A DNA stretch of 32,000 nt from Ferroglobus placidus DSM 10642 (GCF_000025505.1 NC_013849.1:1680001-1712000); one strand, 5' to 3'; positions 2,770 to 24,084 are shown, counted from the first letter of the stretch. Translations and numbers: made by a program. The notes: a model not told the origin generated them from the letters alone.

Positions 2770-4728
2770 TTATTTACCTTTGAACTTCGGCTCTCTCTTT
2801 TCGAAGAAGGCTGCAAACCCTTCTTGCACGTCTTCAGTTGAGGCGACAACGCCAAAGTAAGCCGACTCCAAAGCCTGTCCCGCTTCGACAGGCAGTTCGT
2901 ATCCGAAGTTTATAGCGTACTTCGCAAGTCTCAAAGCGATAGGAGCACCTTTGGCTAAAGTTCTTGCCAAGTTCATTACTTCCTCCCAGAACTTCTCCTG
3001 ATCTACAGCTTTGTGAACAAGCCCTATTTCTTCAGCTTCCTCAGCACCAAGCCTCTTAGCGAGCATTATGAGTTCCTTAGCCTTAGCAATCCCCACTATC
3101 TTAGCCATCCTCTGAGTTCCGCCCCAGCCGGGGATTATTCCTAAAGCTGTTTCCGTCAAACCGATCTGAGCTCCTTTTGCCATTATTCTGAAATCACACG
3201 CTAAAGCAAGCTCGCAACCTCCTCCGAAAGCGTATCCGTTTATCGCTGCTATAACCGGCTTCGAGAATTTTTCTATTGCCGTAAACGTCTGCTGACCCTT
3301 CATAGCGAGCATCATAGCTACAGCCGGTTTCAGCATATCCCCTTCGAGAGTTGCTTGCAGATCGAGTCCGGCTGAGAAAGCCCTTCCCTCTCCGGTGATG
3401 ATGAGAACCCTTACGCTTTCATCCTTTTCGAGCTCCTCCAGAGCTCTTACTATTTCGTCGAGGGTTTCTATCGTCAAAGCGTTGAGTCTGTGGGGTCTGT
3501 TTAGGACGAGCTTCGCAATTCCCTCTTCGACCTTCTCGACCTTTATGTTCATGTAAGCTGCTTTCTCGTAATTGTAAAAGCCTGCTCCAGCTTTCTTCCC
3601 AGTTTTTCCTTCAGCTACAAGCTTTTTCAGGTACTCTGAAGGCTTCAGAATTTCGTAACCTTTCTCCTTGTAAAGTTCCTCGACTTTAGCCAGAATGACG
3701 TCCAAGCCTATCTCGTCTCCGAGCTCGCAAGGACCTTTTGGCATGTTCGTTCCGAGTTTCATGGCTGTGTCGATTTCTTCAGCACTCGCAACGCCCATTT
3801 CAATTAGACTTGCGGCTATGTTCACCATAGGAGCTATGAGTCTTAAAGCATCGTACTTTCCAGCCGCCTCCTTCGGAATCTTCGGTCTTCCCTGCCTCCA
3901 GTCGTAGAAGCCCTTTCCAGTTTTCATACCAAGCTCCTTCGCTTTGAACTTCTCCTCAAGAAGCTTAGATTTCGGCACGATGTCCCACTGCTGGGTGGAG
4001 TAATACAGAATGTCCAGTCCTACGAAGTCGGAAAGTTCGATTGGACCCATGGGGAACTTGTAGTTGTAGAGCATAGTGGCGTCTATCTCCTCCTTAGTTG
4101 CTACGCCATTCTCAACATCCTGTATAGCCAAAACAAGATAAGGCACGAGACATCTATTTACGATAAATCCGGTAACGTCCTTTTTCACGACAACAGGGGT
4201 TTTTCCAAGGCTTTTTACGAATTCGACGGCAATCTTAACGGTTTCTTCGCTCGTGTACTCTCCCTTTATAACTTCAACGAGAGCCATCACCGGAACTGGA
4301 TTGAAGAAGTGCATACCAACGAATTTATCCGGTCTGTCCGTCGCTTTCGAAAGCTCGGTAATGCTCAATCCGGAAGTGTTAGTTGCGAGAATTGCTTTCT
4401 TGTTGTACTCACAGATTTCTTTGAAAACCTGCTTTTTGAGATCCATAACCTCAGGAACAGCCTCTATCACGAGATCTGCATCCTCCACAGCTTCTTTCAA
4501 GTCTGTGGTGAAGTGGAGCTTTGCTTCAATTTCCTTAAGCTTCGTTACGCTGATCTTTCCTTTATTTACAGCCTTTCTCAAATTCTTCTCGATCGTTTCT
4601 TTGGCTTTGTTCAGAATTTCCTCGCTTATGTCTCTAACCCAAACTTCGTAGCCAGCCATTGCACAAACCTGAGCTATTCCGCTCCCCATCGTTCCGGCTC
4701 CAACAACAGCCACCTTCTTAATTTCCAT
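2770..4728 (-). CDS. fused 3-hydroxyacyl-CoA dehydrogenase (N-terminal) / enoyl-CoA hydratase (C-terminal)
   Basis: 652 aa. N-terminal Rossmann motif 'VVGAGTMGSGIA'. C-terminal crotonase motifs 'FSAGLDL' and 'GGGCELALACDFRI'. The domain order is the reverse of E. coli FadB, as in archaeal homologs. Confidence 0.9.
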   Translation of the reverse strand: MEIKKVAVVGAGTMGSGIAQVCAMAGYEVWVRDISEEILNKAKETIEKNLRKAVNKGKISVTKLKEIEAKLHFTTDLKEAVEDADLVIEAVPEVMDLKKQVFKEICEYNKKAILATNTSGLSITELSKATDRPDKFVGMHFFNPVPVMALVEVIKGEYTSEETVKIAVEFVKSLGKTPVVVKKDVTGFIVNRCLVPYLVLAIQDVENGVATKEEIDATMLYNYKFPMGPIELSDFVGLDILYYSTQQWDIVPKSKLLEEKFKAKELGMKTGKGFYDWRQGRPKIPKEAAGKYDALRLIAPMVNIAASLIEMGVASAEEIDTAMKLGTNMPKGPCELGDEIGLDVILAKVEELYKEKGYEILKPSEYLKKLVAEGKTGKKAGAGFYNYEKAAYMNIKVEKVEEGIAKLVLNRPHRLNALTIETLDEIVRALEELEKDESVRVLIITGEGRAFSAGLDLQATLEGDMLKPAVAMMLAMKGQQTFTAIEKFSKPVIAAINGYAFGGGCELALACDFRIMAKGAQIGLTETALGIIPGWGGTQRMAKIVGIAKAKELIMLAKRLGAEEAEEIGLVHKAVDQEKFWEEVMNLARTLAKGAPIALRLAKYAINFGYELPVEAGQALESAYFGVVASTEDVQEGFAAFFEKREPKFKGK

Positions 4729-5242: not shown

Positions 5243-6420
5243 CACCTCTTCTCGAGGGAGTATATCGTAACGTAGCTGTAGTGACCCGTCCCACCGACGT
5301 TGTGAGTTAGCCACCTTCCGTTCTTGATTTCAGCCTGTCTGCCAGCTTCTGCCTTGCTCAAAAGCTGCTTGTAAGCTTCGACAGCCTGAGAAACTCCAGT
5401 AGCACCTATCGGATGACCCTTAGCTTTCAAACCGCCGTCCAGATTTACCGGAATTCTTCCACCTATGTAAGTTTGCTCGTTTCTTATCAGCTCAACCCCT
5501 TCTCCTCTCTTAGCGAATCTCAAATCCTCGTAGGCGATAATTTCTGCTGCGGTAAAGCAGTCGTGCACGTTTGCTCCGTCCAGCTGCTTGTAGGGAGCGT
5601 CCATATCGATTCCGGCTTTCTTGTAGGCAAGTTCAGCTGCAAAAGCGGCAGATTTAAGCGATGTGAACGTCTCTCTCTTGCTTAGATTTGCCGTTCCAGT
5701 CCCGACACCCTGACTGAGAATCCAAACCTTCTCCTCTATTCCCCACTCCTTAACCTTCTCCTCGCTCGCCAGAACAACAGCGGCTGCTCCGTCAGTTATC
5801 GGAGAACAGTCGTAGAGCTTAAATGGCCAGGCAATGTAAGGGGAATTCAAAGCTGTTTCGAGAGTTATTTCCTTCTGGAATTGAGCGTTCGGATTCTTGG
5901 CTCCGTAGTAGTGGTTTTTCACAGCCACCCTCGCAAAGTCTTCTTCGGTTGCATTGTACTTAGCCATGTAGGCTGTAGCATGTAAAGCGTAATAAGCCGG
6001 GAAGGTCAAGCCGAAGTTTTCGAATTCCCAGAAGTAACTTCCGAATCTACCAATAATTTCGATCACCGTCGGATTCGGAGATTCCTGCATTTTCTCCACA
6101 CCGAGAACGAGAACGACATCGGCTTCTCCACTCTCTATAGCGGTGTAACCAACTCTAATAGCTGCACTTCCAGTTGCACAAGCCGCCTCAACTCGCATGC
6201 TTCCTACTCCAAGCTTAGCGTATTCCGCCATCAGAGATGGGACTGCAGCTTCGCTACTCCACAAACCGGCTGTTCCGACAACGAAAAAGTCTATATCCTT
6301 CTGTTCAACGTTTGCCGAGTCAAAAGCCTGTTTCATTGCTTCCCAAGCGAGTTCCGGAACGTTAACGTCTCTTCTGTTTCCGAATTTGGTGTGTCCAACC
6401 CCAATAACAGCTACTGCCAT
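5242..6420 (-). CDS. thiolase (acetyl-CoA C-acyltransferase, archaeal SCP-x-like type)
   Basis: 392 aa. Active-site Cys context 'EAACATGSAAIR'; C-terminal 'GHPIGATG' and 'NVGGTG'. Followed by the DUF35 partner, the usual archaeal pairing. Confidence 0.85.
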   Translation of the reverse strand: MAVAVIGVGHTKFGNRRDVNVPELAWEAMKQAFDSANVEQKDIDFFVVGTAGLWSSEAAVPSLMAEYAKLGVGSMRVEAACATGSAAIRVGYTAIESGEADVVLVLGVEKMQESPNPTVIEIIGRFGSYFWEFENFGLTFPAYYALHATAYMAKYNATEEDFARVAVKNHYYGAKNPNAQFQKEITLETALNSPYIAWPFKLYDCSPITDGAAAVVLASEEKVKEWGIEEKVWILSQGVGTGTANLSKRETFTSLKSAAFAAELAYKKAGIDMDAPYKQLDGANVHDCFTAAEIIAYEDLRFAKRGEGVELIRNEQTYIGGRIPVNLDGGLKAKGHPIGATGVSQAVEAYKQLLSKAEAGRQAEIKNGRWLTHNVGGTGHYSYVTIYSLEKR

Positions 6421-13795: not shown

Positions 13796-14179
13796 ATGCT
13801 TCTAAAACTTAAGTACGATTCCCGTTCGGTAAGAGCTCCGGTCATTTCGAAGGTGGCTATAGAGGAGAACGCGCTGATAAACATAATTGAAGCGAAGGTC
13901 GAGCCGAGGTACGGGGAAATAGTGGTGGAGGTCGACGATGAGATAGCTGAGAGAGTTGCTGAGAAGTTCAAAAAGTACGGAGTAGAGGTTAGAAAGCTCA
14001 CGAAAAGCATAGAGAAGACCGAAAAGTGCGTTGATTGCGGTGCTTGCATTAGCGTCTGCCCCACCGGCGTCTTCGAGAGAGGAGAGGACGACAGAATTGT
14101 TGTAAACGAAGTGAAGTGCATAAGGTGCGGATTTTGCGTAGGAGTATGTCCGCTAAAAGCACTGAGGCTTCCAGAGTGA
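13796..14179 (+). CDS. NIL-domain 2x[4Fe-4S] ferredoxin (MA1822-type partner)
   Basis: N-terminal NIL-like domain (APVISKVAIEENALINIIEAKV...), then 'CVDCGACISVCP' and 'CIRCGFCVGVCP'. The ATG at 13796, 4 nt after the upstream stop, is preferred over the TTG at 13781. Confidence 0.8.
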   Translation: MLLKLKYDSRSVRAPVISKVAIEENALINIIEAKVEPRYGEIVVEVDDEIAERVAEKFKKYGVEVRKLTKSIEKTEKCVDCGACISVCPTGVFERGEDDRIVVNEVKCIRCGFCVGVCPLKALRLPE

Positions 14180-14868
14180 GGAGGTTCAGGTTCAGATATA
14201 AAGAGACGATCGCAACAATCCTTGCGGAAAGCGAGGAGGTTTTCAAAAAAGCCGTGGAACTGATGCTTTACGCGAGGGAGAAAATAGAGGAGAAGATTAG
14301 CCGAGACCCATTTTTTTCAATAACCTATTCTCCCTACGATTGCTCCGAGGAAATCGTTGAGAGAATGTGTCGAGCCTCAAAACTCGCTGGAGTAGGACCT
14401 ATGGCTGCCGTAGCCGGAACTATAGCTGGTTATGCGGTGGAAAAAGTAGAAGCTGATTTTGTTGTCGTGGACAACGGAGGAGATATAGCTCTTAAAACCG
14501 ACCGCGAGCTTCTCGTTGGAATCTATCCTACCAACCTTGCTTTCAAAATCGAGCCGACGGATTTTTTAGCTATCTGCACTTCGAGCGGAAAAATAGGTCA
14601 CTCTGTAAGTTTCGGCTACGCCGACGCGGCAACAGTTATAGCGAAAGATGCGAGCGTAGCCGATGCTTTTGCAACCGCTTTGGGGAATATTGTGGGAGAA
14701 AAAGACGGAAAGAAAGAGATTGAAGAAAAAATTGAAGAGTTCTGGAAAAAAGCTAAAAGTTACGTTGAGGGGTTGCTCGTCGTGAAGGATGAGGTTGTCG
14801 CCTTCGCCGGAAAAATTCCGGAGCTCGTTGTGGCTAAGATAGACCCAGACGTGATAACAAAAGGCTAA
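14176..14868 (+). CDS. UPF0280 / COG2122 ApbE-like protein (MA1715-type)
   Basis: 'GPMAAVAG' and 'VVVDNGGDIAL' motifs. A GTG at 14176 overlaps the ferredoxin stop (GTGA) and gives the family-like N-terminus (M)RRFRFRYKETIATI. The track start at 14116 would overlap the ferredoxin by 64 nt. Confidence 0.7.
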   Translation: MRRFRFRYKETIATILAESEEVFKKAVELMLYAREKIEEKISRDPFFSITYSPYDCSEEIVERMCRASKLAGVGPMAAVAGTIAGYAVEKVEADFVVVDNGGDIALKTDRELLVGIYPTNLAFKIEPTDFLAICTSSGKIGHSVSFGYADAATVIAKDASVADAFATALGNIVGEKDGKKEIEEKIEEFWKKAKSYVEGLLVVKDEVVAFAGKIPELVVAKIDPDVITKG

Positions 14869-15712
14869 CTCTCTCCACCGACTTTTTATCTCTGAAGAAG
14901 GGATCTCCAAGCACTACGTGGTCGCATAAGCTCAAAAGCTCTTTAACGCGATTGGAAACGTCTTCCAACTTTCCTGAGATTGTGAAAAATTCGAGAATTT
15001 TCTCAGCAGCAGCTTTCAGCTTTTCGTATTCGCTGTTGTTTTCCAAGTTCTCCCCTCTCTGCCTCTTTTTTATTAGCTCTTCTATCCTCACTTCTTTGAT
15101 TTTTTCGTAAGATTTGTAGTAGCTGAACTTTTTCAGAAAATCTTTGCTCGTTTGCATAACTATCGAGCAGGCTATAATCAAATCTTGGTAGAACTCGCTC
15201 GGAAGAATTAAAGCCGGTCCGTAAGCTGCTTTAAATCCGTCGTAGTCTTTGAAGACCTCCACGTGCTTGGGATGGACGTGATTCAGCAGAATTCCCGAGC
15301 AGTACTTTTTCGCGATCTCGTAAGATTTCAGCCATGTTACTCCGCAGAGGAATTCATCGAACTTTTCTTTTAACTTTTTTAGAAATTTTTCGTAATCTTT
15401 TAGCTTAAAACCTCCCGAAGCAACGCCGAGAACGAACCTCTCTCCGTAGTCTTTTTCGAGTCTTTTAAAGTTCTCGTAAATTTCCTCCGCTCTCTTCCTC
15501 GGAGTTAACACTCCGAAGCCTACGAGGTGTTCGAAGTTTTCGGCAACTATCTCTGCAACTTTGAAGGGATCTATGAAGAGCGGATTTTCGCCTATCCAGA
15601 TAATCTTCACTCTCTCAGAGAGAAATCTGGAGAGCTCTGCGATCTCTTTCTCCGGAAGGTCTCCGTTTACGTTAACTCCTACTCTACCAGCTTTCGATAA
15701 TTTTTCTAACAT
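14834..15712 (-). CDS. luciferase-like (LLM / Mer-family) TIM-barrel oxidoreductase-like protein
   Basis: 292 aa. The pattern resembles F420-dependent Mer/LLM proteins: 'IIWIGENPLFIDPF', 'VGFGVLTP', 'FVLGVASG', and a C-terminal 'FFTISGKLEDVSNRVKELLSLCDHVVLGDPF'. Its start overlaps the upstream RHH gene by 29 nt, and its 3' end overlaps the convergent COG2122 gene by 35 nt. Confidence 0.45.
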   Translation of the reverse strand: MLEKLSKAGRVGVNVNGDLPEKEIAELSRFLSERVKIIWIGENPLFIDPFKVAEIVAENFEHLVGFGVLTPRKRAEEIYENFKRLEKDYGERFVLGVASGGFKLKDYEKFLKKLKEKFDEFLCGVTWLKSYEIAKKYCSGILLNHVHPKHVEVFKDYDGFKAAYGPALILPSEFYQDLIIACSIVMQTSKDFLKKFSYYKSYEKIKEVRIEELIKKRQRGENLENNSEYEKLKAAAEKILEFFTISGKLEDVSNRVKELLSLCDHVVLGDPFFRDKKSVERVSLLLSRLGLS

Positions 15713-16157
15713 CCTTTATTTCGCCCTTTTCGCTCTTCTTCTTTTCAGGCACGTAGCCGAGTCTGTCTCCGTAGTTTTCTACAACTATCTTTGCAGCCAT
15801 TTTTGCTATTTCTACGATCTCGAAGTTCTCTCTCTTTTTCAGATGTTCCTTTCTTTTATCAACGAAATAAGAACAGAAGAGGCATTTGTAAACGTTTAAA
15901 GGCTCAACCTCAGCCTCTAAATCGGTTAAAGCTTCCAAAGCACAGATTTTTCCGTCGCTGTACTTGCAGTTTCTCATCTTTTCCGTTCCGTACTTCTTAG
16001 CGTACTTTTCGAGTTCTCCGCTGACCTCCTTTTTTCTCTTCAGGAAGTACCACTCGAGGAGTGCTGAGATAAATTCCGAAGGAGATACTCCGAGCTCCTC
16101 GCACTTTTTCAGAAGTTTCTCCTCTATATCTGCCGGAATGTCGACGGAGACCCTCAT
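15684..16157 (-). CDS. ribbon-helix-helix (CopG/ParR-like) DNA-binding protein with a C-terminal four-Cys domain
   Basis: 157 aa. The N-terminus 'MRVSVDIPADIEEKLLKKCEELGVSPSEFISALLEWYF' has a beta-strand/helix/helix RHH pattern. It is followed by C-x7-C ... C-x2-C (NCKYSDGKIC ... KCLFC). Its ATG overlaps the stop of the actin-like gene (ATGA). Confidence 0.65.
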   Translation of the reverse strand: MRVSVDIPADIEEKLLKKCEELGVSPSEFISALLEWYFLKRKKEVSGELEKYAKKYGTEKMRNCKYSDGKICALEALTDLEAEVEPLNVYKCLFCSYFVDKRKEHLKKRENFEIVEIAKMAAKIVVENYGDRLGYVPEKKKSEKGEIKDVRKIIESW

Positions 16158-17134
16158 GACTTCTTTCTACCTTTCTTTTCCTTCGGCTCCTCCTTCTTTT
16201 CTTCCACCTTCTCTTCTACTTCTTTCTCCTCATACAAAAGCTTTGCCAACTTGTAAAATCCTTTTACGTTGCTCGTTAAAGGATTGTCAGGCATGGTTAC
16301 CTCTCCTATTTCGCTGAAATGTCTCTGGAACTCTTCGTAAACTCCCGGAAGCATCGCTCCTCCTCCGCTCAAAACGAAATTCTCCACTATGCTTATGGAA
16401 AGTCCTTCGATCAGCATCTTCACTCTGCTCGATATTCTGTCTATCCAGCTTCTCATCAACCTTTCGTAGTCCTCTTTGATGTCCTCGTAGCTTATGCTTA
16501 TCTTCTTTCCACTCCTTATTCTCCCCACGGTCTTTTTCTCAACTAACAGCTTCGTCATTTCCTCCGGAGTTATGCTAACGCCAGTTTTGTTCCTTATCTC
16601 CAGCTCCAAGCTTTCGTAGATGTTGTCCACGCCTATGAGCAGAGTGTCTCCTTTTAGAAACTCCATGTCAACCAAAACCGCTACGTCAGTCGTGCCAAAG
16701 CCTATGTCCACGCAGACTCCGGTTTCGTAGTTCAGAAAAGCCAGGCTTCCAACTGGCTGAGGAAATATAACGACCTCCTTTTTCAAGCTTTCCTGAAGCT
16801 TGCTTTTAATCTCCTCCCTTTCCTTCCTTGAAGATTTCACGGGAAGTCCCGTTGCTACGAAATCTCCTTCCGCTTTCTTCAAAGCGTATTTCGCAAGCTC
16901 CACGTACGATTCGTGCATGATTCTGCCTTCGTGGAGGGGTCTTAGGATCTCCATGTCCTCGACGTTCTGAAAATGCACAGCTTCTTCTCCCACGTAAACG
17001 TCCTTTTCTTCTCCTTTCAGGCTCCAGTCCCTCTTTTTTCCGTAGGCGACTATGCTCGGAAATACGAAAACGTTCTCTCCGTCGTTCGTAACTTTCGTGT
17101 AGTTGGTTCCGATATCAAGTCCAACGAATTTCAT
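16154..17134 (-). CDS. actin-fold (ASKHA) ATPase, ParM / Ta0583-like, with a Lys/Glu-rich C-terminal tail
   Basis: Phosphate-1 'GLDIGTNYTKV', phosphate-2 'VCVDIGFGTTDVAV' and adenosine motif 'VLSGGGAMLPGV'. The ~25-aa tail is EEKEVEEKVEEKKEEPKEKKGRKKS. The ATG at 17134 is preferred, because the track start at 17149 is a TTG inside a duplicated 11-mer. Confidence 0.75.
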   Translation of the reverse strand: MKFVGLDIGTNYTKVTNDGENVFVFPSIVAYGKKRDWSLKGEEKDVYVGEEAVHFQNVEDMEILRPLHEGRIMHESYVELAKYALKKAEGDFVATGLPVKSSRKEREEIKSKLQESLKKEVVIFPQPVGSLAFLNYETGVCVDIGFGTTDVAVLVDMEFLKGDTLLIGVDNIYESLELEIRNKTGVSITPEEMTKLLVEKKTVGRIRSGKKISISYEDIKEDYERLMRSWIDRISSRVKMLIEGLSISIVENFVLSGGGAMLPGVYEEFQRHFSEIGEVTMPDNPLTSNVKGFYKLAKLLYEEKEVEEKVEEKKEEPKEKKGRKKS

Positions 17135-17148
17135 TGAAACGAATTTCA
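17123..17148. repeat. tandem direct repeat AACGAATTTCA x2 (15-bp period) spanning the actin-like gene start
   Basis: Exact 11-mers at 17123-17133 and 17138-17148, which cause the duplicated 'MKFV' in the ORF track. GAAAC pentamers recur at 17136, 17153 and 17174. Confidence 0.6.
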
Positions 17149-17161
17149 AAGCGAAACAATA

Positions 17162-17169
17162 AAAATTTT
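17162..17169. promoter_or_regulatory. palindromic AT element AAAATTTT, candidate shared bidirectional TATA box
   Basis: It is the only AT-rich element in the ~50-bp divergent gap. It is centred ~31 nt from the ATG at 17134 (minus) and ~24 nt from the in-frame GTG at 17189 (plus). That spacing would make both mRNAs leaderless or nearly so. A second TATA-like run (ctatatattt, ~17195-17204) is an alternative. Confidence 0.3.
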
Positions 17170-18202
17170 GTCGGAAACATTAAGAATCGTGCACCTCTAT
17201 ATATTTCCTGAGAAGGACTCGGAGAAAATTCTTGCGAGTCTGAAGAATCTAAAGCCAGCTTTTAAAGCTGAGAAAAACTACGAGGTTTTTGCTGTGAGCG
17301 ACGACGGAAGAGTTATGGCTGGAAAATACAAGAAAACGTTTTTCGTTCTTTCTGAAGAAGATCTCGTCTTTCCTGTAGAACCGCTTGAGTCTTACCGAAT
17401 AATTTTCGGAGATTACGGCGAAGCAAAGTTTGAGAATAGTACTGTTTACGTTCCTCGGGAAAAGAGCGAAATCGTTTTACGAAATCTCGTCCCCTTTTTA
17501 TCCGAAATAACGGTAGCTAAGATTCTGATTAAAGATGCGAGGCTCAGGGCTGAGCATTTAACTAAAGAGGAGACGAAAATAATCTCGGAGGTTACGAAAA
17601 TTCTTGAAGGGGCGAAAACTCTAAGCGTTTCGAAGCTTGAAGAACTTGCCTATTCGATTTCCTCGCTAAAAGGATCGTTTTTTTCCGCTTACATGCAGTT
17701 TAAAGACGAGCTCGAAGAAATCTCATCTTCTTTGATCAGAGCTGAAGAACATTCGGGAGAACTTGGTTTCGCTGAGCTAATTTCTAGTCTAAGGTCTCAG
17801 CTTCGAGCCCTTCGCCAATACGAATCGAGCTTCGAATCCACTCTCAGCGGCGTGAGGGATGCCCTCGACACGGTTCATTTAAAATTGGAGTCCCTCCACA
17901 GAAAGGAAAATCTTGAGCTTCAGAGGAAAACCTCTTCTCTTCAAGCGGCAGCAGCCGTTATAGAGTTTATCGCCGTCTTCTACTACTCCATGGGAATCTG
18001 GAGCAAATACGCTAATTTAGAAGAGATTCCTAAGTGGATTTCCTTTTCTTTGCTTGCGATTCTCTCGACTTTAGTTGTCATCTGCACGGAAGCTGTCGGA
18101 GAAGTTTTAACGAGTAAGAAGCTAAACGGGAGGTTTTACGTAGTTACGACTCTTTTAATTCTCGTCATCATTGCGATGCTCCTTGTTACTGTCTATTATT
18201 GA
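17168..18202 (+). CDS. coiled-coil protein with three C-terminal TM helices (CorA-like overall shape, no GMN motif)
   Basis: 344 aa. A soluble alpha/beta N-terminal domain is followed by a long heptad-like helical region (residues ~120-250). It ends in TM helices AAAAVIEFIAVFYYSMGIW, WISFSLLAILSTLVVICTEAV and FYVVTTLLILVIIAMLLVTVYY. The start is uncertain: TTG 17168 or GTG 17189, with the first ATG far downstream. Confidence 0.6.
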   Translation: MSETLRIVHLYIFPEKDSEKILASLKNLKPAFKAEKNYEVFAVSDDGRVMAGKYKKTFFVLSEEDLVFPVEPLESYRIIFGDYGEAKFENSTVYVPREKSEIVLRNLVPFLSEITVAKILIKDARLRAEHLTKEETKIISEVTKILEGAKTLSVSKLEELAYSISSLKGSFFSAYMQFKDELEEISSSLIRAEEHSGELGFAELISSLRSQLRALRQYESSFESTLSGVRDALDTVHLKLESLHRKENLELQRKTSSLQAAAAVIEFIAVFYYSMGIWSKYANLEEIPKWISFSLLAILSTLVVICTEAVGEVLTSKKLNGRFYVVTTLLILVIIAMLLVTVYY

Positions 18203-18380
18203 GGAGCTTTAAGGCTTTCAATCGATCTTCTATCATTTTCAGATGTTCCCTCTCCTGAGAAATTAGATAATCGAGAAGCTCCGATGTCAGAGGATCGGCG
18301 TTTTTCTTCATTTCGTTGTACTCCTTAATAGCCTGAACTTCCAACTGCTTAGCTCTTTCTAAAATTTGTTCGGGAGTCAT
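18186..18380 (-). CDS. small two-helix ferritin/rubrerythrin-like protein (single E ... ExxH half-site)
   Basis: 64 aa from the ATG at 18380 (MTPEQILERAKQLEVQAIKEYNEM...SQEREHLKMIEDRL). Helix A has E-x-x-A-x-x-x-Y and helix B has E-x-x-H. The 3' end overlaps the convergent membrane-protein gene by 17 nt. Confidence 0.4.
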   Translation of the reverse strand: MTPEQILERAKQLEVQAIKEYNEMKKNADPLTSELLDYLISQEREHLKMIEDRLKALKLLNNRQ

Positions 18381-18422
18381 GGAGTAAAAATTGGTTTCAA
18401 AAAACAAAAACTTTTTCCAGAA

Positions 18423-22093: not shown

Positions 22094-22625
22094 GCTAACT
22101 CACGGTATTTAAGTGTTGCACCTTTTTGTTCCGTTAATTTATTGTTGGTGGGAATGAAAAATTATCGAGTATTCGCTTTCACACTACTGGAAAAAATGAA
22201 TCTTAAGTAAATTTAGTCCGATTAGTTTTCGAGTTAATTCCACAAACTTGCAGAACAGATTCCAGTTTACAATCGGATTCTCAGCTGTAATCGAGCAGAA
22301 GAAGATGAGAGAGCTGAACACGGATTCAACCAAGTTCCTTCTTTGCATCACTATAGGAGGCTTTGTGGGATTCGGAGAGAATCTTAGTTATCCTCCTGAC
22401 CTCCTGAAAGATACTGTCTGAAAGTAAACGGCTGTGCTAAGAACTCTTCTTCAGAAATCTTATTTCTCTCAAATATTGTTAGTTATTTGACTAGATATAT
22501 TATCATAATCTTAAGTATATTTATCTTTATAAAATTATTAGTATATACTATCACGCTATGCTCTAAACAGAAAATTTTTTAAGGAAAGAAGTAATGAAAG
22601 CTGAGTAAAAGTGTAAGGTGTGTGA

Positions 22626-23540
22626 ATGAAGAAAGCACTTGTGATTGGAATATGCTTGTTGATAGTAGTAGGAATAGTAGGAGTGGTCTCGGGGGAAACT
22701 AATAAGGAAAATAAGAATGAAATTATCGAATTGAAGCGTTTGTTTCAGCCAATAGATTCTGAAGCACGCAGGTATTTAGTGGACGAGCGTTCTTCAGAAG
22801 AACTAAATATCTTTGCCAAATATTTGGTGAAAAAGTACGATAAGTGTCTAGATGTCATTACAGATAAATTAGAGAAAATTGCTGGAAAGAGTTTAACACA
22901 AAAAGAGAAAGAGAAATTTAAGTATCTACTGATAAGGGAGTATTTAAGTAAGATAGATCAGGAACTGGGACTTAAACTTACTAATACCTCCAAAGAAATA
23001 GTGAAACTGGTTCCAATTGGTACTTTCAGAGATTCTCAATATAGTTATAAAATCTATTATGCACCATTAAGTAGTAGCGTACCTTATCCGATATATTATT
23101 GGATACAAGTTTATCCAGATGTTTACGGAGGTAAAGGAACCGATGATGCTGGAAATAGATATGACGTTAATGGAGACAATAATTTATACCAAGTTTCTGC
23201 CGAGTATACAACAAATTATGTAAAATATACCTTGTATTTCAAAGATGAAGACCATCCAGATCCAACATGGGATGCAATCTACGATGCTTGGAGAAAACTA
23301 TGGTACGGCAGAATTGAGGACATAGAAAGCTTCACTGTAGAAAATGGTGTAATAAACTTTGATGATATATGGGATAATGATAAAACATATGCAGAATGGT
23401 GGGGACAGCACGGTGATAAAACGCGCGATTATACCAGTAATACTGCAGTATATATTAGTAATGTATGGAACCATGCTATGGATACCTTAGACAAAAATCC
23501 AAGTATGAATAAAGTCTGGTGGTATATATCTTGGTCTTAA
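22626..23540 (+). CDS. orphan secreted or membrane-anchored protein with a W/Y/D/N-rich C-terminal domain
   Basis: 304 aa. N-terminal signal/anchor MKKALVIGICLLIVVGIVGVVSG. AGGTG lies 5 nt upstream of the ATG. AT-rich codon usage. No family recognised. Confidence 0.6.
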   Translation: MKKALVIGICLLIVVGIVGVVSGETNKENKNEIIELKRLFQPIDSEARRYLVDERSSEELNIFAKYLVKKYDKCLDVITDKLEKIAGKSLTQKEKEKFKYLLIREYLSKIDQELGLKLTNTSKEIVKLVPIGTFRDSQYSYKIYYAPLSSSVPYPIYYWIQVYPDVYGGKGTDDAGNRYDVNGDNNLYQVSAEYTTNYVKYTLYFKDEDHPDPTWDAIYDAWRKLWYGRIEDIESFTVENGVINFDDIWDNDKTYAEWWGQHGDKTRDYTSNTAVYISNVWNHAMDTLDKNPSMNKVWWYISWS

Positions 23541-23585
23541 TCTTTATTTAATTTTTATTAATTATTTTTAATTTAGGTGTAAAAC

Positions 23586-23930
23586 ATGAAAATTTATAAA
23601 GTACTAAGCTTGTTGCTGATAGCTGTACTTGGAATTTCGTTTATAAGTAAGATTTTTATAGCTTATTTAAATCCTGAAATTTTCTTTTTTGGTGAAAAAT
23701 TGGGTGGTGACAAAGCAAGAATTTATCTGTTAGCAAATGCTTTGGTTGGTATTTTTTTGGTAGCGTTGCTTTTAAAAAAGGATTATTGGAAAGGTACAGT
23801 TTTAGCCATCTTATATTTCGGGTATAATGCATGCGAAGGATACATATCTTACCAAACAGTAACACCATTTACGCTACTCTCACTTCTTCTACCAATCTTA
23901 ACATTAATACTCCTTAAGCTCGACATATAA
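23586..23930 (+). CDS. small polytopic (~4 TM) membrane protein, orphan
   Basis: 114 aa with four hydrophobic segments. AGGTG lies 6 nt upstream of the ATG. Same AT-rich composition as the upstream gene. Confidence 0.5.
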   Translation: MKIYKVLSLLLIAVLGISFISKIFIAYLNPEIFFFGEKLGGDKARIYLLANALVGIFLVALLLKKDYWKGTVLAILYFGYNACEGYISYQTVTPFTLLSLLLPILTLILLKLDI

Positions 23931-24084
23931 AATCAAATAGCTAGTTCGCAAATCTTTGCCTTGCTTCGGTGATATCTAGTTCGGACAACAGGCAACAATC
24001 TGCCACAGTTTTAATTCGTCTAAATTCTCGCCTTACGACTTGGACTTCAGAATCTTTTTATATTAATCCAAAGGAAAGGCATGC

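Follow-up and report, generated by a model that had tools for sequence, protein, structure and literature searches.

We analysed a 32,000-nucleotide (nt) stretch of the chromosome of Ferroglobus placidus DSM 10642 (NC_013849.1:1680001-1712000; the window, within which all coordinates are counted) that carries a minus-strand cassette of genes for an actin-like ATPase (ACT), a 157-amino-acid (aa) partner protein and a luciferase-like/Mer-like (LLM-like) protein. A first-pass annotation made from the sequence alone had described these three open reading frames (ORFs) and a divergent fourth encoding a membrane protein, and an ORF check found all four in the window. The cassette ORFs exactly match the public F. 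placidus DSM 10642 proteins ADC66093, ADC66092 and ADC66091, the first of which goes under the name "actin/actin family protein" or under "rod shape-determining protein", while the other two are listed as hypothetical. The features of the locus are as follows.

16154..17134, minus strand: actin-like ATPase (ACT), 326 aa, ADC66093.1 (ORF and exact public match).
16157..16243, minus strand: disordered C-terminal tail of ACT, residues ~298-326, a Glu-rich linker with the basic tip KEKKGRKKS (alignment and family statistics).
15684..16157, minus strand: partner or adaptor, 157 aa, ADC66092.1 (ORF; its start overlaps the ACT stop, ATGA).
16032..16157, minus strand: probable ribbon-helix-helix (RHH) domain, partner residues 1-42 (Pfam, PHROG, hhalign and AlphaFold secondary structure).
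15873..15968, minus strand: Cys4 module of the partner, C64-x7-C72 ... C92-x2-C95 (invariant Cys in the alignment).
15687..15722, minus strand: C-terminal amphipathic helix of the partner, …IKDVRKIIESW (53-sequence alignment and hydrophobic moment).
14834..15712, minus strand: LLM-like TIM-barrel protein, 292 aa, ADC66091.1 (ORF; third gene of the cassette).
17135..17167, minus strand: short cassette promoter region with the TATA-like box TTTTTATT (as read on the minus strand; plus-strand positions 17158-17165).
17168..18202, plus strand: membrane protein with a predicted CorA/Mrs2-like fold, 344 aa from a TTG start (ORF; neighbour outside the conserved unit).

The ACT and partner genes form a pair whose conservation we traced through 18 cassettes, namely the window, 11 loci from a species-representative genome collection and six further contexts, which include the complete genomes of Archaeoglobus profundus and Geoglobus acetivorans and contigs with A. 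veneficus and A. sulfaticallidus proteins. The partner gene was found directly downstream of ACT and co-directional with it in 18/18 cassettes, and in 14 of these the two genes share a 4-nt ATGA stop/start overlap, as had been noted for the window. Such a pairing far exceeds what chance would give. Each genus has different genes on either side, the upstream neighbours including rpS2 and enolase, an amidohydrolase, LysE, multihaem cytochromes, a CarS-like gene and a TnpB gene; because adjacency is kept in every cassette while the flanks change, the pair travels as a unit. The linkage of the actin-like gene to the partner gene, which the first-pass annotation knew from one genome, is thus conserved across Archaeoglobi, so that the lack of conservation named there as a refuting outcome did not arise. 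Both families are confined to this class, with 133 ACT homologs (essentially all Archaeoglobi) and 52 partner homologs (all Archaeoglobi, none with a precomputed Pfam domain), and the pair is restricted to and widespread in Archaeoglobi, where it is chromosomal. Archaeoglobus fulgidus was not among the named ACT homologs. Full-text literature searches found no paper on the ACT family or its partner, in line with the earlier statement that no characterised equivalent was known in Archaeoglobales; none was found for Archaeoglobi as a whole.

At one of these loci, in A. sulfaticallidus (L018, 2580-3908), a gene of the IS605 OrfB/TnpB type lies directly upstream of ACT, and the cassette there has no LLM-like gene.

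The core of ACT (residues ~1-297) contains the three actin/ASKHA nucleotide-binding signatures picked out by the first-pass annotation (GLDIGTNYTKV, VCVDIGFGTTDVAV and VLSGGGAMLPGV). The phosphate-1, phosphate-2 and adenosine motifs are invariant in the family, with residues D7/G9/T10, D143/G145/G147/T148/T149/D150 and G257-G259 unchanged across 37 aligned homologs. In a further motif, P(Q/E)P, the Gln or Glu aligns with the Glu of MamK (Ser-Glu-Pro), a position we take to be that of the catalytic Glu/Gln of actin-like ATPases. Pfam families above their cut-offs were MreB_Mbl (7e-17), ALP_N (6e-12), MreB-like_C (1e-9; Ta0583-type) and Actin (1e-8). When a profile built from 37 family members was compared with the PDB, it reached MamK at 2e-12, MreB at 4e-12, pSK41-type ParM (3js6) at 1e-8, and Ta0583 and actin at ~3e-6; the R1 ParM structure was not matched at E <= 0.001. 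All of the 60 matches listed, out of 66 at this threshold, were MamK, MreB, ParM, Ta0583, actin or Arp, families that are filament formers or close actin-related kin, and no sugar kinase, Hsp70 or BadF/BcrAD protein was among these 60. Family and PDB searches therefore lead away from the non-filament ASKHA enzymes (sugar kinases, EutJ/Hsp70, BadF/BcrAD) that had been named as the competing placement, and by sequence ACT belongs with filament-forming actin-like proteins, with a predicted intact nucleotide site.

Within this superfamily, ACT reached none of the curated NCBIfam models for ParM, MreB, MamK or salactin. Bit scores against the respective cut-offs were 64 versus 417 for ParM (PRK13917, covering the C-terminal half only), 61 versus 293 and 45 versus 366 for MreB (PRK13927 and TIGR00904) and 52 versus 400 for MamK, whereas the salactin models gave 15.8 versus 27.1 bits (Pfam PF25229) and 20.9 versus 400 bits (NCBIfam NF053533), on the C-terminal 50 aa only. 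Judged by these scores, ACT is ParM-like at the superfamily level and falls outside the ParM family. The strongest single score, to PHROG 691 "partition protein" (3e-33 over the full length), was rejected as decisive functional evidence, given that this family also holds phage MreB-like proteins and that its name is an annotation.

The public name implies that ACT is an MreB orthologue setting cell shape and that the downstream genes are incidental, and MreB_Mbl is indeed the best single Pfam match, with MreB structures also reached by profile. Nonetheless, the NCBIfam MreB models were missed widely, and mreC, mreD or rodA-type neighbours were found in none of the six annotated contexts, in contrast to a true MreB-MreC locus recovered in our searches (L015). 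Archaeoglobi are irregular cocci without peptidoglycan, and an MreB role would leave the conserved partner unexplained. We consider an orthologous MreB function very unlikely.

A HMMER scan of 1.84 billion representative proteins recovered the ACT family as one 50%-identity cluster (1e-162), followed by a steep gap and then a handful of sister proteins of 270-345 aa at 1e-40 and below. These sisters share the N-terminal FPS…W motif as well as the GLP and SGGG motifs and come from rare thermophilic archaeal metagenome-assembled genomes (MAGs) labelled Desulfurococcales, Thermoplasmatales and Thermococci. Among the nearest sisters from outside Archaeoglobi (P0174-P0178), a metagenome scan with P0174 returned only the ordinary bacterial MreB-MreC locus mentioned above, and viral-contig scans with P0175 and P0178 gave no match. 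By the HMMER scan, ACT is a distinct actin-like family confined to Archaeoglobi.

This distribution also bears on whether the cassette could be a true partition locus of type II (ParMRC) that belongs to an integrated plasmid or provirus. Such an origin would fit the gene order, an actin-like gene followed by an RHH adaptor, and it would fit both the PHROG 691 name and the nearest plasmid-borne ACT relatives, which are annotated ParM/StbA (26%-29% identity over 90% of the length). However, the family is a single Archaeoglobi-restricted cluster, and the cassette sits among housekeeping genes (rpS2, enolase and exosome genes) with a GC content like that of its flanks. Close ACT relatives were absent from plasmid, phage and viral-contig collections, the viral contigs yielding only relatives of 24%-26% identity on large phages, and no parC repeats were found. 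An integrated partition locus is therefore extremely unlikely, and we return to ACT as a chromosomal, filament-type protein.

Behind its core, ACT carries the Lys/Glu tail of about 25 aa that had been described for the window (residues ~298-326), and this tail is family-wide: its length ranges over 22-57 aa, its body is acidic, and its tip is basic, with an average of 5.2 Lys or Arg among the last 8 residues. Its coding region contains a two-copy 15-nt tandem repeat (16188-16217) encoding repeated EEKVE units, which suggests that the tail evolves through short duplications and fits its spread in length.

A second 15-nt direct duplication lies at the 5' end of the ACT gene (17120-17149; GAAATTCGTTTCAAT GAAATTCGTTGGA). 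Initiation at a TTG at 17149 instead would lengthen the protein by 5 aa, and it would then read "MKFVSMKFVG"; the ATG at 17134 is favoured because of the public model and the homolog alignment.

The N-terminus of the partner is probably an RHH domain, as the first-pass annotation had proposed from its pattern. Although Pfam RHH_1/RHH_5 matched the window protein at only E~0.08, RHH_1 was matched by 10 of the 53 sequences in the partner family alignment (best 0.0025), and PHROG 582 "Arc-like repressor" matched residues 2-44 at 8.4e-4. Comparison with CopG by hhalign (with a manually entered CopG sequence) gave 82% probability and E 1e-5 over residues 1-37, in register over 39 columns and across the whole CopG fold. 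The AlphaFold secondary structure, extended at residues 1-8 and helical at 9-22 and 26-41, likewise fits an RHH. A conserved helix, IAKLAAKxVVELYGDKLGY, is also evident in the alignment.

The C-x7-C...C-x2-C cluster reported for the partner is present, and all four Cys (C64, C72, C92 and C95) are invariant in the 53 sequences, together with S67/D68/G69 and F94. They sit in conserved CKYSDGxxCA and YKCLFC motifs that are kept in the most divergent partners. The Cys4 module is presumed to be a metal site holding Zn or an iron-sulfur (Fe-S) cluster; it had no family or PDB match, and the profile of the whole partner family had no PDB match even at E <= 10.

Two further observations concern the cysteines of the partner. 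Besides these four, C19 in the first helix of the RHH is invariant in the alignment of 53 but lost in the divergent partner of locus L016. Weak Pfam Radical_SAM matches occurred in 11/53 homologs (best E 0.012) and are probably noise driven by the Cys-rich motifs, although we keep the Fe-S reading of the module open.

At its other end, the partner closes with an amphipathic helix that follows a linker of variable length, acidic in most homologs. The tip has the consensus VKKLLExW, with a terminal Trp in 53/53 sequences and hydrophobic positions at -8, -5, -4 and -1; its mean hydrophobic moment is 0.72, compared with 0.35±0.17 in shuffles, and AlphaFold placed a low-confidence helix at residues 148-156. 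In the Pyrobaculum system, the C-terminal helix of arcadin-2 places a key Trp in a hydrophobic groove of crenactin, and ParR/ParM was cited alongside (PMC5173319). The conserved Trp-helix of the partner is compatible with an adaptor C-terminus that binds the ATPase, and we propose a tail-in-groove contact because the C-termini of ParR, CorR and arcadin-2 dock likewise on ParM, CorM and crenactin, a recurring design of which ParR-ParM was the first example.

The same helix could belong to an arcadin-2-like sequestering or depolymerising factor, in which it would block the ACT groove and keep ACT monomeric, with the RHH and Cys4 parts serving only dimerisation or regulation. Arcadin-2 adjoins crenactin and its Trp-helix depolymerises filaments from within the groove (PMC5173319), Cb-cParR depolymerises mature filaments (PMC12270681), and the terminal Trp of the partner is invariant. 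The conserved RHH-like N-terminus and Cys4 module, however, imply a further ligand that sequestration does not need, and sequence cannot tell this mode from that of an adaptor. We regard pure sequestration as quite unlikely and continue to favour an adaptor.

The LLM-like gene, which the first-pass annotation described as following the pair, is itself conserved as the third gene of the cassette. In the window its overlap with the partner gene is 29 nt, as reported, and it was found directly downstream in 15/18 cassettes, mostly overlapping the partner gene; it is missing in those of A. profundus, A. sulfaticallidus and L017. A profile of 13 LLM-like orthologs matched structures of F420-dependent Mer at 9e-12, and Pfam Bac_luciferase matched 10 of the 13 (best 1.6e-16), which places the protein in the LLM superfamily; the Mer equivalog thresholds were not reached (28.9 bits versus a cut-off of 276). 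A role in defense was considered and dropped, PADLOC having given no match for the three cassette proteins.

Given this third gene, the cassette might instead encode a metabolic complex in which ACT, rather than polymerising, serves the LLM/Mer-like enzyme as an ASKHA-type activase or chaperone, and electrons are transferred through an Fe-S cluster held by the Cys4 protein. The frequency and overlap of the LLM-like gene speak for such a complex, as does the capacity of a Cys4 site to bind Fe-S in these anaerobes, to which the Radical_SAM matches in 11 of 53 partners may be added. Nonetheless, at E<0.001 ACT resembled neither BcrAD/BadFG activases nor sugar kinases nor Hsp70, the pair persists in the three cassettes that have no LLM-like gene, and the RHH and tail features would go unexplained, which makes a metabolic complex highly improbable.

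Our preferred reading, to which we give a probability of roughly 0.5, is instead that of a chromosomal filament-adaptor module of the ParMR/CorMR-like kind, found only in Archaeoglobi but widely among them. In the model that we infer from sequence, ACT polymerises, and possible contacts of its disordered tail, acidic in its body and poly-Lys at its tip, are membrane lipids, DNA and the acidic linker of the partner. The partner would dimerise through its N-terminal RHH and carry a four-Cys metal site, and its Trp-helix, reaching out on a flexible linker, would insert in a hydrophobic groove between ACT subdomains IA and IIA. Docking of this helix would either couple filament ends to a cargo held by the RHH and Cys4 parts, most likely DNA, or cap and depolymerise the filament; the LLM-like protein would usually be co-translated as a third component. 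On this reading, the partner is probably a dimer that binds DNA and contains metal, with its Trp-helix as the means by which it couples to ACT filaments or regulates them, and the cellular role may lie in chromosome or nucleoid positioning or in cell organisation.

Several observations weigh against this reading. ACT scores below the curated ParM model, and its profile is slightly nearer to MamK and MreB than to ParM. The RHH score of the window partner is sub-threshold (13.3 bits versus a cut-off of 20.5), and the AlphaFold monomer of the partner, based on the 53-sequence alignment, is poor (pLDDT, the predicted local distance difference test, of 49), its Foldseek search being uninformative; a poor model is, however, expected for the monomer of an obligate-dimer RHH with a metal site. 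A repeat search found no iterons or centromere-like repeats in the window between 14.7 and 18.5 kb, tandem repeat arrays of iteron type were absent from all 32 kb, and no conserved operator motif was found across the 18 cassette promoters. Lastly, the conserved LLM-like gene has no counterpart in any ParMR precedent. The proposal of a chromosomal ParMR-like filament/adaptor pair thus stands as regards the filament-type ATPase and the conserved linkage, but not as regards ParM-family membership or parC-like repeats, and a full ParM-ParR(-parC) system is not what the locus and window searches or the curated ParM model support.

The upstream regions of the cassettes share a single feature. In the window, the TATA-like box lies ~24-31 nt upstream of the ACT ATG, and a AAAnTTTTTTAT-type box occurs at the same distance in 14 other upstream regions, as the sole feature common to the 15 compared; its position ~25 nt before the ATG suggests a near-leaderless transcript. 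Within 300 nt upstream of all 18 cassettes, 8-mers were iterated in 3-6 copies, compared with 3-4 (maximum 5) in shuffles, which we take as no excess of iteration.

Individual loci do carry repeats or palindromes that are not conserved across loci. In Geoglobus sp. UBA235 (L004, ~5950-5985), the TATA-like box upstream of ACT is flanked by the two arms of a perfect 8-bp palindrome, TGCAAACA-N8-TGTTTGCA, which could be an operator; of this palindrome, the other Geoglobus loci (L005 and L014) retain the left half-site only. Upstream of the cassette promoter, L016 (3888-3960; TTAAAAACAyTGnGG) and L003 (5907-5960; ATyAAAAATTkTTGG) each have a pair of AT-rich direct repeats of ~15 nt with a spacing of 23 nt, and L016 has in addition three copies of AGGyTTTTTGCwTAAA. 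Also in L016, the interval from the CarS-like gene to the cassette holds a GC-rich segment (3790-3885) that resembles a minus-strand tRNA gene and is a candidate for one.

These promoters bear on a simpler view of the partner, in which it is a plain RHH transcription factor with a metal- or redox-sensing Cys4 site (a NikR-like logic) that regulates the operon, including the LLM-type oxidoreductase, while ACT acts independently and makes no contact with it. RHH proteins are typically repressors and the signal here matches those of the CopG/Arc type, four invariant Cys suggest a sensor site, parC was not found, and a few promoters have the palindrome (around the TATA box in L004) or spaced repeats (L016 and L003) that a regulator might use. 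However, an operator motif common to the 18 promoters was lacking, and this view leaves unexplained both the amphipathic Trp-helix behind its variable linker and the 18/18 adjacency, with 4-nt coupling, to an actin-like gene amid changing neighbours. We therefore see a stand-alone regulator as unlikely but credible, and retain the filament-adaptor module as our working interpretation.

Among described systems, CorM-CorR of Anabaena is, by architecture, the closest parallel to the ACT-partner cassette. There, a ParMR encoded on the chromosome and without parC has been repurposed as a cortical cytoskeleton, in which CorR is an RHH protein whose helix H5b, a C-terminal peptide tethered by an intrinsically disordered region (IDR), binds CorM (10.1101/2025.06.27.661541). 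Both systems are chromosomal, vertically conserved in their clade and free of parC repeats; in both, an actin-like protein with a disordered extension precedes an RHH-containing protein of ~160 aa with a tethered C-terminal helix, and the ribosome-binding region of the partner lies inside the 3' end of the actin-like gene. They differ in that CorMR is bacterial and the ACT cassette archaeal, that CorR has an N-terminal membrane-binding amphipathic helix and binds no DNA whereas the RHH strand of the partner starts at residue 2, that the partner has an added invariant Cys4 module, that the IDR is N-terminal in CorM but C-terminal with a poly-Lys tip in ACT, and that CorMR has no LLM-like third gene. 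This likeness is one of architecture, the sequence relationship having been compared no further than the superfamily level.

The plasmid ParMRC systems (R1, pSK41 and pB171) and chromosomal cParMR share with the cassette the order of an actin-like ATPase and then a small RHH adaptor in the same operon, and the C-terminal adaptor peptide would be expected to bind the ATPase groove as in ParMRC; chromosomal ParMs of Firmicutes (Desulfitobacterium and Clostridium) polymerise (PMC12270681). In contrast to ParMRC, the cassette has neither parC nor a plasmid context, ACT scores too low for the curated ParM model, with MamK/MreB as near to it as ParM or slightly nearer, and the partner has a Cys4 module unknown in ParR. 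The crenactin-arcadin-2 pair of the Pyrobaculum arcade cluster is similar in joining an archaeal actin homologue to a neighbour-encoded protein with a conserved C-terminal Trp-helix, but crenactin is close to actin whereas ACT is MreB/MamK/Alp-like, the further members of the cluster differ (arcadin-1, -3 and -4), and arcadin-2 depolymerises, with RHH or Cys4 unmentioned in its paper (PMC5173319).

Among other archaeal actins, ACT resembles Ta0583 of Thermoplasma in passing both Pfam ALP_N and MreB-like_C, although its profile reached Ta0583 at only 3e-6; we know of no conserved adaptor described for Ta0583. Salactin of Halobacterium is an actin homologue of Methanotecta with homologs said to occur in Archaeoglobi, is nearest to MamK, and shows poor synteny and no conserved partner (PMC10746226). 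MamK is also the best PDB match of ACT, but ACT lies below the salactin thresholds and salactins were not among its top neighbours. Thresholds and neighbour composition thus argue against the identification of ACT as a salactin, and the supplement of the salactin paper holds no Archaeoglobi identifiers.

Divergent from the cassette lies the membrane protein gene, whose ORF lies 33 bp from the ACT ATG if the TTG start is used and 54 bp from it if the start of the 337-aa public F. placidus protein, to which it is 100% identical, is used. The protein has its own family of 32, all Archaeoglobi and including AF_2239. Its AlphaFold model (pLDDT 85) combines a beta-rich N-domain with three long helices, of which the last runs on into the first transmembrane (TM) helix, and shows three TM helices in all, and its full-length top Foldseek matches were human MRS2 (2.7e-4, probability 1.0) and Thermotoga maritima CorA (~1e-2), with TM-scores of 0.3-0.45 against CorA/Mrs2. 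The model thus indicates a fold that is CorA/Mrs2-like in overall shape only. It shares with CorA/Mrs2 an N-terminal alpha/beta domain and long stalk helices continuous with the first TM helix, but it has no GMN, three TM helices instead of two and no CorA Pfam match (0/26 family members), and its family profile had no match in the PDB. The first-pass annotation was therefore right about the CorA-like shape but not about YYSMGIW as an equivalent of GMN: the motif is present, and we see no GMN equivalent because its Gly is Lys or Gln in most homologs.

A functional tie between the actin pair and this membrane protein, also suggested at first, is unsupported. The gene is absent from all 17 other cassette loci, as is a 73-aa rubrerythrin-like ORF, and at the closely related locus L001 (83% ACT identity) rpS2 directly abuts the cassette, ending 40 bp before ACT with no membrane gene between. 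The position of the membrane gene beside ACT is a lineage-specific accident, and the gene lies outside the system.

The 73-aa rubrerythrin/ferritin-like mini-ORF itself (18186-18407, minus strand; Pfam Rubrerythrin 1e-6) runs convergently to the membrane gene, with a 17-nt overlap at the 3' end of the latter. Because both ORFs are missing from L001, they seem to represent a single insertion, specific to this lineage, that separates rpS2 from the actin cassette. On the other side of the cassette, a gene of the PRK04334 family (14116-14868, plus strand; NCBIfam 3.8e-93, "hypothetical protein", with a weak ApbE-like touch) is convergent with the LLM-like gene, the 3' ends overlapping by 35 nt, an arrangement also seen in L001 but not at other loci. 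Further along the window, positions 22200-24000 have a low GC content (0.33-0.35, compared with ~0.45 elsewhere) and comprise an AT-rich intergenic region of 400 bp (22210-22625) and two ORFs without a Pfam match (22626-23540, plus strand, 304 aa; 23586-23930, plus strand, 114 aa); this stretch may be a horizontally acquired islet.

For most Euryarchaeota, chromosome organisation and segregation are little understood, and a partner is known for few of the archaeal actin homologues. The cassette provides a defined system of two, often three, proteins from a hyperthermophile, with clear predictions: filaments, docking of the tail in the groove by way of a single invariant Trp, an RHH domain that binds DNA, and a metal site. 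It also corrects a systematic mis-annotation, in which coccoid, wall-less organisms carry a "rod shape-determining protein MreB". Two additions appear without precedent in known ParMR-type designs, the invariant Cys4 module and the co-translated Mer-like gene, and the conservation of the latter hints at a link between the cytoskeleton and F420/redox metabolism. In a stronger form, which we hold to be rather improbable, Archaeoglobi would position or segregate chromosomal DNA by an actin-based machine rather than one of ParA/SegAB type, with the RHH adaptor linking filament to chromosome and with the Cys4 module and F420-type LLM protein making this coupling metal- or redox-responsive; the result would be an archaeal equivalent of ParMRC, inherited vertically throughout the class, to which a layer of regulation without precedent in bacteria has been added. 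If the filament-adaptor reading is true, the ParMR/CorMR principle, in which an RHH adaptor docks on an actin-like filament by a C-terminal peptide, would extend from bacterial plasmids and cyanobacterial chromosomes to Archaea.

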